This document shows positions 1,804-1,912 of a stretch of DNA of 7,351 nucleotides, in pieces; position 1 is the first letter of the stretch, and each line of letters opens with the position of its first letter. The stretch is from a virus (Duplodnaviria > Heunggongvirae > Uroviricota > Caudoviricetes): IMG/VR virus record IMGVR_UViG_2693429524_000006; one strand, 5' to 3'. Under the pieces are notes generated by a model. That model ran no database searches and was not told where the DNA came from. It saw only the letters and a list, made by a program, of their open reading frames with translations. The position numbers were made by a program, and so were the translations under genes.

Positions 1804-1820
1804 ATTACCTTAAAGGTAAT
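1804..1820. promoter_or_regulatory. inverted repeat ATTACC-N5-GGTAAT in the divergent intergenic region
   Basis: perfect 6-bp arms; same TTACC-N5-GGTAA core as 273-287, 1898-1912, 2950-2964 and 4980-4994. Confidence 0.4.
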
Positions 1821-1868
1821 ATCTTGCTTTCAGGTGATCAAGCGTTAAACGCAATCAACCAAATACGG

Positions 1869-1912
1869 TTGATTTTAATATTTCTTCGCGTTTATCATTA
1901 CCTTTGCGGTAA
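1869..1912 (+). promoter_or_regulatory. leader promoter of antirepressor B (TTGATT-N18-TATCAT) with TTACC-N5-GGTAA repeat abutting the -10
   Basis: -35 at 1869-1874, -10 at 1893-1898, inverted repeat 1898-1912; mirrored on the minus strand at 4980-5023. Confidence 0.5.

Follow-up and report, generated by a model that had tools for sequence, protein, structure and literature searches.

The closest known systems to the locus analysed here are the repressor-binding sites of Salmonella phage epsilon15 and the Rep/Ant switch of phage SPC32H (PDB 5D50, 5D4Z). According to later work, SPC32H Rep binds palindromic sites as a tetramer (PMC9638917), and a tetrameric antirepressor releases it by binding the C-terminal domains of Rep (PMC9638917; see also PMC9986798). 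In phage ZX5, overexpression of Rep blocked lysis, left no free phage and lowered lysis-gene transcripts by more than 99.9%, and overexpression of ORF4 lowered lysogeny and brought prophage counts down about thousand-fold (PMC9782041). For phage P1, C1 was reported to repress the c4-icd-ant operon, the C4 RNA also being needed for keeping ant off (PMC8198154). As for operators, seven sites in the epsilon15 RefSeq entry are labelled 'protein_bind / repressor / lysogeny', and all of them read (A)TTACC-N5-GGTAAT. This annotation may itself be a prediction, and by it the motif has already been recognised as a putative repressor site of this phage group. The records of TL-2011b, phiV10 and ZX5 contain no such operator features, and a search of the full-text literature for the letters of the motif or for Uetakevirus operators returned nothing specific.

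The same palindrome, TTACC-N5-GGTAA, recurs in the 7,351-nt stretch of viral DNA studied here (IMG/VR record IMGVR_UViG_2693429524_000006; hereafter the window), and very probably it is an operator bound by Rep, which is the master repressor of lysogeny in epsilon15-like (Uetakevirus) prophages. The motif, the repressor fold and the antirepressor mechanism are known, and the window sites are further, un-annotated members of this set. What may be new is the occurrence of Rep operators on c4 leaders together with fused, multi-copy antirepressors and with cassette boundaries placed at operators; otherwise, the known biology of the phage genus was confirmed.

Sequence comparison places the window in an epsilon15-like (Uetakevirus) Escherichia coli prophage, of which it is the variable region with antirepressor and cargo genes, located between the virion and tailspike genes. 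At 99% identity, 67% of the window matched Escherichia phage TL-2011b, in which the genes are in the same order, and parts of it also matched the epsilon15-like podoviruses phiV10, ZX5 and Tyrion. Furthermore, the flanking virion gene and the ant/tailspike neighbourhood matched those of phiV10 and ZX5. The E. coli genome closest to the window is that of UTME-14, the prophage of which adjoins guaA; species-representative genomes contained no exact match to the 172-205 junction of the window. The last 111 bases of the window (7241-7351) matched, at 100% identity, the ends of two copies of an IS3-family element in UTME-14, and homology to the TL-2011b virion gene ended at 7241. An IS end at the very position where the homology stops suggests that a structural gene was interrupted by the IS, so the prophage may be defective.

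Compared with the epsilon15 sites and the SPC32H switch, the palindrome core is identical, the copies are likewise multiple and promoter-overlapping, and the positions around rep are the same. The Rep proteins of the window's relatives are homologous to SPC32H Rep over the full length, and the window Ant domain is homologous to SPC32H Ant. Several differences were found as well. The window operators precede P1-type c4/isrK leaders, whereas Salmonella and Klebsiella members have no such leaders, and because epsilon15, SPC32H and BUCT711 are without c4/isrK, the operator appears to be independent of the P1-type leader. Several fused antirepressors (Bro-N or AntA plus Ant domain) are found in the window, whereas SPC32H has a single 86-aa Ant, and the spacers are less A/T-rich than those of the Salmonella clade. 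SPC32H ant is LexA-controlled; in contrast, the window has no LexA box (CTGT-N8-ACAG), and the single one-mismatch match, against 2.5 expected, fell inside the C4 RNA. Since the window is without an SOS box, LexA (SOS) control of its ant promoters was rejected.

The region also resembles immI of P1 and P7, in which a master-repressor operator (predicted here) lies on the promoter of a C4 RNA and its target sites (candidates here), followed by an ant directed against that repressor, and in which operators for the repressor are found at many places in the genome (PMC8198154). It differs from immI in that there is no icd gene, just 47 nt separating the end of C4 (2134) from the ant start codon (2182), and in that it belongs to an integrated podovirus and not to a plasmid prophage. 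The operator of P1 C1 is asymmetric, whereas the repressor here would be a helix-turn-helix Rep with a symmetric operator. The region thus works like immI without being a member of it: icd is missing, the repressor of the relatives is SPC32H-type Rep and not C1, and the operator is symmetric.

With the OL/OR operators of lambda CI, the Uetakevirus sites share palindrome clusters on both sides of the repressor gene and over divergent promoters, and the pairing of sites suggests an oligomeric repressor that binds cooperatively or by looping. Unlike those of lambda, however, Uetakevirus operators also lie on late, packaging, integrase and accessory promoters, 15 of 16 pairs are exactly 62 bp apart, and induction is attributed to an antirepressor and not to RecA-stimulated cleavage (PMC9638917). 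Finally, the immI region of P22 (Mnt/Arc) likewise places an antirepressor region between the virion genes and the tailspike gene, with operators over the ant promoter, and the window keeps a truncated P22-type ant N-terminus at 5142-5489. Nevertheless, the window contains neither arc nor mnt (TL-2011b has an Arc-like gene), and the operator sequence and its binder are unrelated to those of P22.

Palindromes, promoters and genes of the window

The earlier note had reported five perfect copies of TTACC-N5-GGTAA and one copy with a single mismatch, and all six were recovered (Table 1). Given the base composition of the window, 0.0078 perfect sites are expected, in agreement with the previous estimate of 0.007, and no perfect site occurred in 200 dinucleotide-preserving shuffles of the window. 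Sites 172 and 2950 lie within a 184-nt direct duplication (1-184 / 2779-2962, 97% identity), and sites 1898 and 4980 lie within a 171-nt inverted duplication (1854-2024 / 4868-5038, 88% identity). Because two pairs are therefore duplicated copies, the six copies represent four independent origins, which against an expectation of about 0.008 is far over chance; the enrichment is real. All six sites are intergenic, and they have the same form as the seven annotated epsilon15 sites, five being perfect and one carrying a GGTGA half-site.

Table 1. Predicted operators, promoter-like elements, leaders and antirepressor genes of the window
Feature	Position	Strand	Details
Promoter-like TTGCAG-17-TACTAT	144-172	+	Final T doubles as first base of operator 172; duplicates the 2922-2950 promoter
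Predicted operator, variant, TTACCTCACGGGTGA	172-186		One mismatch, GGTGA half-site; on last T of -10 TACTAT
Predicted operator, perfect, TTACCCTAATGGTAA	273-287		41 nt upstream of 211-aa cargo ORF (328-963); 101 bp from the 172 site
Predicted operator, perfect, TTACCTTAAAGGTAA	1805-1819		Just upstream of minus-strand 242-aa ORF (1056-1784); 93 bp from the 1898 site
Predicted promoter P1 of rightward ant leader	1869-1898	+	TTGATT-18-TATCAT
Predicted operator, perfect, TTACCTTTGCGGTAA	1898-1912		Starts on last T of the P1 -10
Second promoter-like element P2	1914-1942	+	TTTACA-17-(TG)CATAGT; -35 abuts the 1898 operator
Rightward P1-type immI leader	1936-2134	+	c4-a1b1, isrK-like, C4
Antirepressor, Bro-N N-domain and SPC32H Ant-like C-terminal domain	2182-2877	+	Pfam Bro-N 2e-21
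Predicted cargo promoter TTGCAG-17-TACTAT	2922-2950	+	
Predicted operator, perfect, TTACCTCAAGGGTAA	2950-2964		On last T of -10; upstream of 59-aa ORF (3025-3204) and YafO-family toxin gene (3179-3724)
Second antirepressor, AntA N-domain and SPC32H-Ant-like C-terminal domain	4051-4707	-	Pfam AntA 4.2e-26
Second P1-type leader	4757-4978	-	P2' (4978-4950), c4-a1b1 (4904-4956), isrK-like (4867-4943), C4 (4757-4841)
Predicted operator, perfect, TTACCGCAAAGGTAA	4980-4994		Mirror copy of the 1898 site; overlaps -10 of leftward ant leader promoter
Predicted leftward ant leader promoter TTGATT-18-TATCAT	5023-4994	-	

It had also been claimed that three copies start at the last base of a -10 hexamer. 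Indeed, the first T of the motif is also the last base of TATCAT at 1898 (plus strand) and 4980 (minus strand), with TTGATT at 18-nt spacing, and of TACTAT at 2950, with TTGCAG at 17-nt spacing; the same arrangement was found at 172, where the promoter sits downstream of the first (truncated) ant copy. In total, a -10 hexamer ends on the first T at four of the six sites. One further site, 1805, overlaps a weak leftward promoter (TTAACG-18-AGATAT) facing the minus-strand gene, and at site 273 no convincing overlapping sigma-70 -10/-35 match was found. Given a transcription start about 7 nt past the hexamer, operator 1898 would span approximately -7 to +8. A protein bound to a motif that starts on the final base of a -10 would exclude RNA polymerase, and thus the sites are most simply read as repressing operators.

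The GGTGA variant of site 172 is unchanged in six other prophages and is also found at the rep/cro intergenic site of TL-2011b, phiV10 and Tyrion, and site 273 is likewise kept in six other prophages. The 1805/1898 pair occurs with the equal 93-bp spacing in TL-2011b (34385/34478) and in UTME-14, and site 2950 has its counterpart in TL-2011b at 33333. In addition, a second palindrome, AATCAACC-N6-GGTTGATT, was observed at 1853-1874 over the -35 of leader promoter P1, where it was also scored by the terminator scan; its mirror copy at 5018-5039 is imperfect. Between the 172 and 273 operators, a 10-codon mini-ORF (225-257, MRKFDEYEGV) follows a strong AGGAGG ribosome-binding site.

Two inverted P1-type immI leaders were identified with Rfam, and each precedes an antirepressor gene. 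In the rightward leader, the candidate c4-a1b1 target (1936-1988) scored 45.1 bits (E=4e-9), slightly below the gathering score of 46.7, the isrK-like hairpins with terminator (1949-2024) scored 77.9 bits, and the C4 antisense RNA (2049-2134) scored 77.7 bits against a gathering score of 45. The corresponding values on the minus strand were 37.6 bits for c4-a1b1 (E=8e-7; gathering score 46.7) and 61.2 bits for C4 (gathering score 45). The predicted start of P2 near 1949 coincides with position 1 of the Rfam isrK model. At both leader operators, a second promoter-like element was observed directly downstream (1914-1949; 4978-4943), with its predicted start at isrK position 1, and this arrangement recalls the two c4 promoters of phage P1. 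A Trp-leader match at 887-994 was dismissed, since by chance a terminator resembles this model (E=0.83; 21.6 bits versus a gathering score of 41).

Residues 150-226 of the Bro-N antirepressor, that is, its C-terminal 77 residues, matched the 86-aa SPC32H Ant (PDB 5D50 chain E, 'Anti-repressor protein'; E=1e-13), and the protein is identical to ZX5 ORF4 at 230 of 231 residues. The AntA-type antirepressor matched SPC32H ant in a tblastn search, and its C-terminal part shares 96% DNA identity with the 2182-2877 gene. The C-terminal Ant domain is 96-97% DNA-identical in three antirepressor genes (2622-2900, 4028-4306 and 1-122, the last being cut by the window start), and in all three it is homologous to the whole 86-aa SPC32H Ant. 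Since one C-terminal domain is joined to different N-domains, the three antirepressors of the window look like domain-shuffled fusions of a Rep-binding module. The other window genes encode the 211-aa protein, a 53-aa membrane protein and the 242-aa protein, which has a C-terminal zinc-ribbon-like region and was called a zinc-ribbon membrane protein. At 3025-3724, the 59-aa ORF overlaps the YafO-family toxin gene in a toxin-antitoxin-like layout behind a predicted Rep operator.

The palindrome and Rep in Uetakevirus genomes

Perfect copies of the palindrome were counted in seven Uetakevirus genomes: 10 in TL-2011b, 10 in SPC32H, 8 in phiV10, 9 in Tyrion, 9 in BUCT711, 11 in epsilon15 and 10 in ZX5. 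With four one-mismatch copies added, TL-2011b has 14 sites versus 0.82 expected, and 14 of 14 are intergenic by its gene table. The int gene and the head operon are each preceded by one site, and terS by two. Two sites lie on either side of gp10, in the gap to the leftward early operon and in that to the divergent 76-aa gene. A pair follows the replication genes, the ant region holds three, and one more is in the gap between the small ant and the tailspike gene. The sites of SPC32H, phiV10, Tyrion, BUCT711, epsilon15 and ZX5 are at places corresponding to these. In every related genome the rep gene is flanked by the palindrome, with two or three sites on each side, and the ant/tailspike site present in relatives falls just beyond this window. 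Genus-wide, a -35 together with a -10-like hexamer whose last base is the first T of the motif was found at 38 of 70 sites, compared with a background of 7.4% at random positions.

The fuller form of the motif is ATTACC-NNWNN-GGTAAT. Across the 62 unique sites of the genus, all ten half-site bases are without variation, the centre of the spacer is always A or T with the rest of the loop free, and an A/T flank lengthens the palindrome to 17 bp. Spacers and flanks are A/T-rich in Salmonella and Klebsiella phages and mixed in those of E. coli. The motif travels with the phage genus through Escherichia, Salmonella, Klebsiella and Enterobacter. The earlier note had proposed a genome scan, and the motif did not prove to be common in the host: a 177.5-kb sample of the E. 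coli chromosome outside the prophage contained no perfect site, whereas the UTME-14 prophage contained 12 in about 45 kb. The 15-bp sequence is a simple marker by which the Rep regulon could be mapped in the many similar prophages of E. coli.

No rep gene lies in the window, in which the earlier note had seen no obvious candidate repressor gene, and Rep, the candidate cognate repressor, would be encoded outside it. TL-2011b gp10, a protein of 194 aa encoded between two operator clusters, matched SPC32H Rep (PDB 5D50) over the full length with E=6.6e-42, and Rep homologues are present in TL-2011b, SPC32H, phiV10, Tyrion, BUCT711, epsilon15 and ZX5, that of ZX5 being 98.5% identical to gp10. In TL-2011b, UTME-14, ZX5 and phiV10, Rep and its flanking operators occur in the same prophage. 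Between the E. coli and Salmonella clades, the N-terminal 72 residues of Rep are conserved at 53% versus 36% for the rest of the protein, and the helix motif NLVNRW, the predicted recognition helix, is invariant in eight Reps. This conserved N terminus with its invariant NLVNRW fits the invariant half-sites. It is because of the GenBank annotation and the comparative pattern that Rep is taken to bind exactly this palindrome.

The earlier note had suggested that one DNA-binding protein co-regulates the ant leaders and the cargo promoters. The epsilon15 annotation, the rep-flanking sites, the -10 enrichment and the absence of the motif from the host all speak for a common binder, but the scope would be far wider, since the predicted regulon is the whole phage, including early, replication, packaging, structural, integrase, tailspike and ant promoters. 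The binder had also been described as dimeric, whereas SPC32H Rep acts as a tetramer and not as a simple dimer (PMC9638917). With Rep, a predicted regulator can be assigned to six un-annotated sites.

The exception among the 62-bp pairs mentioned above, which were measured start to start in eight genomes, both to the left of rep and beyond the replication genes, is spaced at 63 bp; in genome L001 the pairs are at 5172/5234 and 8227/8289, with equivalents in genomes L003-L009. The rep/cro pair is spaced at 17 bp in Salmonella and Klebsiella phages and at 48 bp in E. coli and Enterobacter phages. The operator core was also observed to be identical among phages whose Reps are just 42-45% identical (genomes L001, L003, L006 and L007). 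If operators define immunity specificity, an identical core despite approximately 42% identical Reps would be unusual, and it raises the question of what sets that specificity.

Candidate binders and the proposed circuit

The alternative that survives best, although we consider it unlikely, is that the main binder is not Rep but another phage regulator, namely the 76-aa Cro-like protein encoded divergently from rep. This protein matches PHROG 35 'transcriptional repressor' (5.6e-13) and is kept at 59-100% in seven of seven genomes, and in lambda-type switches the operators are common to Cro and CI. However, a Cro-like protein that shares the sites would add to Rep binding and not replace Rep. 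Moreover, the epsilon15 record names a repressor, silencing of packaging, structural and integrase promoters is the role of a lysogeny repressor, and it was overexpression of Rep that cut the lysis-gene transcripts in ZX5 (PMC9782041).

Much less probable is a binder encoded in the window, for which the earlier note had named the 59-aa protein upstream of the YafO-type toxin or an antirepressor N-domain of the Bro-N/AntA type. The 59-aa ORF is in the antitoxin position and antitoxins are often DNA-binding, and Bro-N domains have been proposed as DNA-binding (PMC9782041). Nevertheless, among the genomes compared, the 59-aa and YafO genes are confined to the window and TL-2011b, and the rep-flanking and pre-terS sites are unlinked to 59-aa, YafO or Bro-N/AntA genes. 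Both candidates were rejected as the general binder because epsilon15, SPC32H and BUCT711, which have neither the 59-aa/YafO genes nor the Bro-N/AntA N-domains, keep 9-11 perfect sites.

Equally remote is the idea that the motif acts in RNA, as a boxB/nut-like element or a processing site. Its 5-bp stem and 5-nt loop are equal in size to those of lambda boxB, and the isolated 15-mers fold at -2.4 to -3.9 kcal/mol. In the 62 unique sites, however, the ten stem bases are invariant with zero compensatory changes and the loop is free except for the central A/T; an invariant stem with a free loop is the signature of a protein reading DNA. Furthermore, where the -10 ends on the first T, the predicted start lies inside the motif and leaves the 5' arm untranscribed, and the sites occur in both orientations relative to genes. 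On these grounds, a lambda-type boxB/nut hairpin was rejected. It is just as improbable that the palindrome is recognised by a host transcription factor or that chance and duplication produced it, since, although two of the six copies stem from internal duplications, the four independent origins remain, and since the motif follows the phage genus, the window is without a LexA box and the 177.5 kb of host DNA, on which a host factor was rejected, contain zero perfect sites.

Taking Rep as the binder, we infer the following circuit. Rep would be encoded roughly 25-30 kb from the window sites, and pairs of its N-terminal helix-turn-helix domains would bind the two half-sites, the bound Rep covering the -10/+1 region and keeping RNA polymerase off. 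In the lysogen, both c4/ant leaders would be silenced, as would the 59-aa/YafO pair, the genes for the 211-aa and 242-aa proteins and the remaining promoters of the phage. The Ants behind two of the operators carry the SPC32H-Ant-type domain, which would take Rep tetramers apart, giving a double-negative loop in which Rep blocks ant and Ant blocks Rep. Each leader also encodes a C4 antisense RNA, which probably acts after transcription as a further brake, as it does in phage P1, and P2 may escape Rep and supply C4 RNA in the lysogen. A Rep tetramer may also link the two operators of a pair, which are a fixed distance apart (62 bp genus-wide, 93 bp here); the 62-bp spacing would suit such a contact with two sites. 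We propose only tentatively that these parts form one hybrid immunity circuit, in which Rep operators, c4/isrK leaders and chimeric Ants make up a double-negative loop with an RNA threshold, the operator serves as a cassette joint and Rep bridges the pairs; such a circuit is possible, but we hold it to be somewhat less than an even prospect.

The reading of the palindrome as a Rep operator predicts that ant and the accessory genes (the YafO-type pair and the 211-aa and 242-aa genes) are silent in the lysogen and come on only upon Rep inactivation. If repressed in the lysogen, the 59-aa/YafO pair would be expressed only on induction or infection. The 'cargo' genes would accordingly look like functions of induction or infection time and not like lysogenic-conversion genes.

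Since boundaries of homology blocks fall at the 172 and 1898 operators, the conserved promoter-operator may be a joint at which ant and cargo cassettes are swapped, few boundaries having been sampled. The 1-184 / 2779-2962 duplication ends inside the operator (184/186; 2962), and the matches to phiV10, ZX5 and Tyrion set in at 1908, 1892 and 1889, respectively, at or just before the 1898 operator. A 62-nt direct repeat of 97% identity (996-1057 / 3940-4001) was also observed, which holds a bidirectional terminator and the 3' end of the gene for the 53-aa membrane protein; its first copy (996-1057) is a remnant without the gene and is another trace of cassette turnover.
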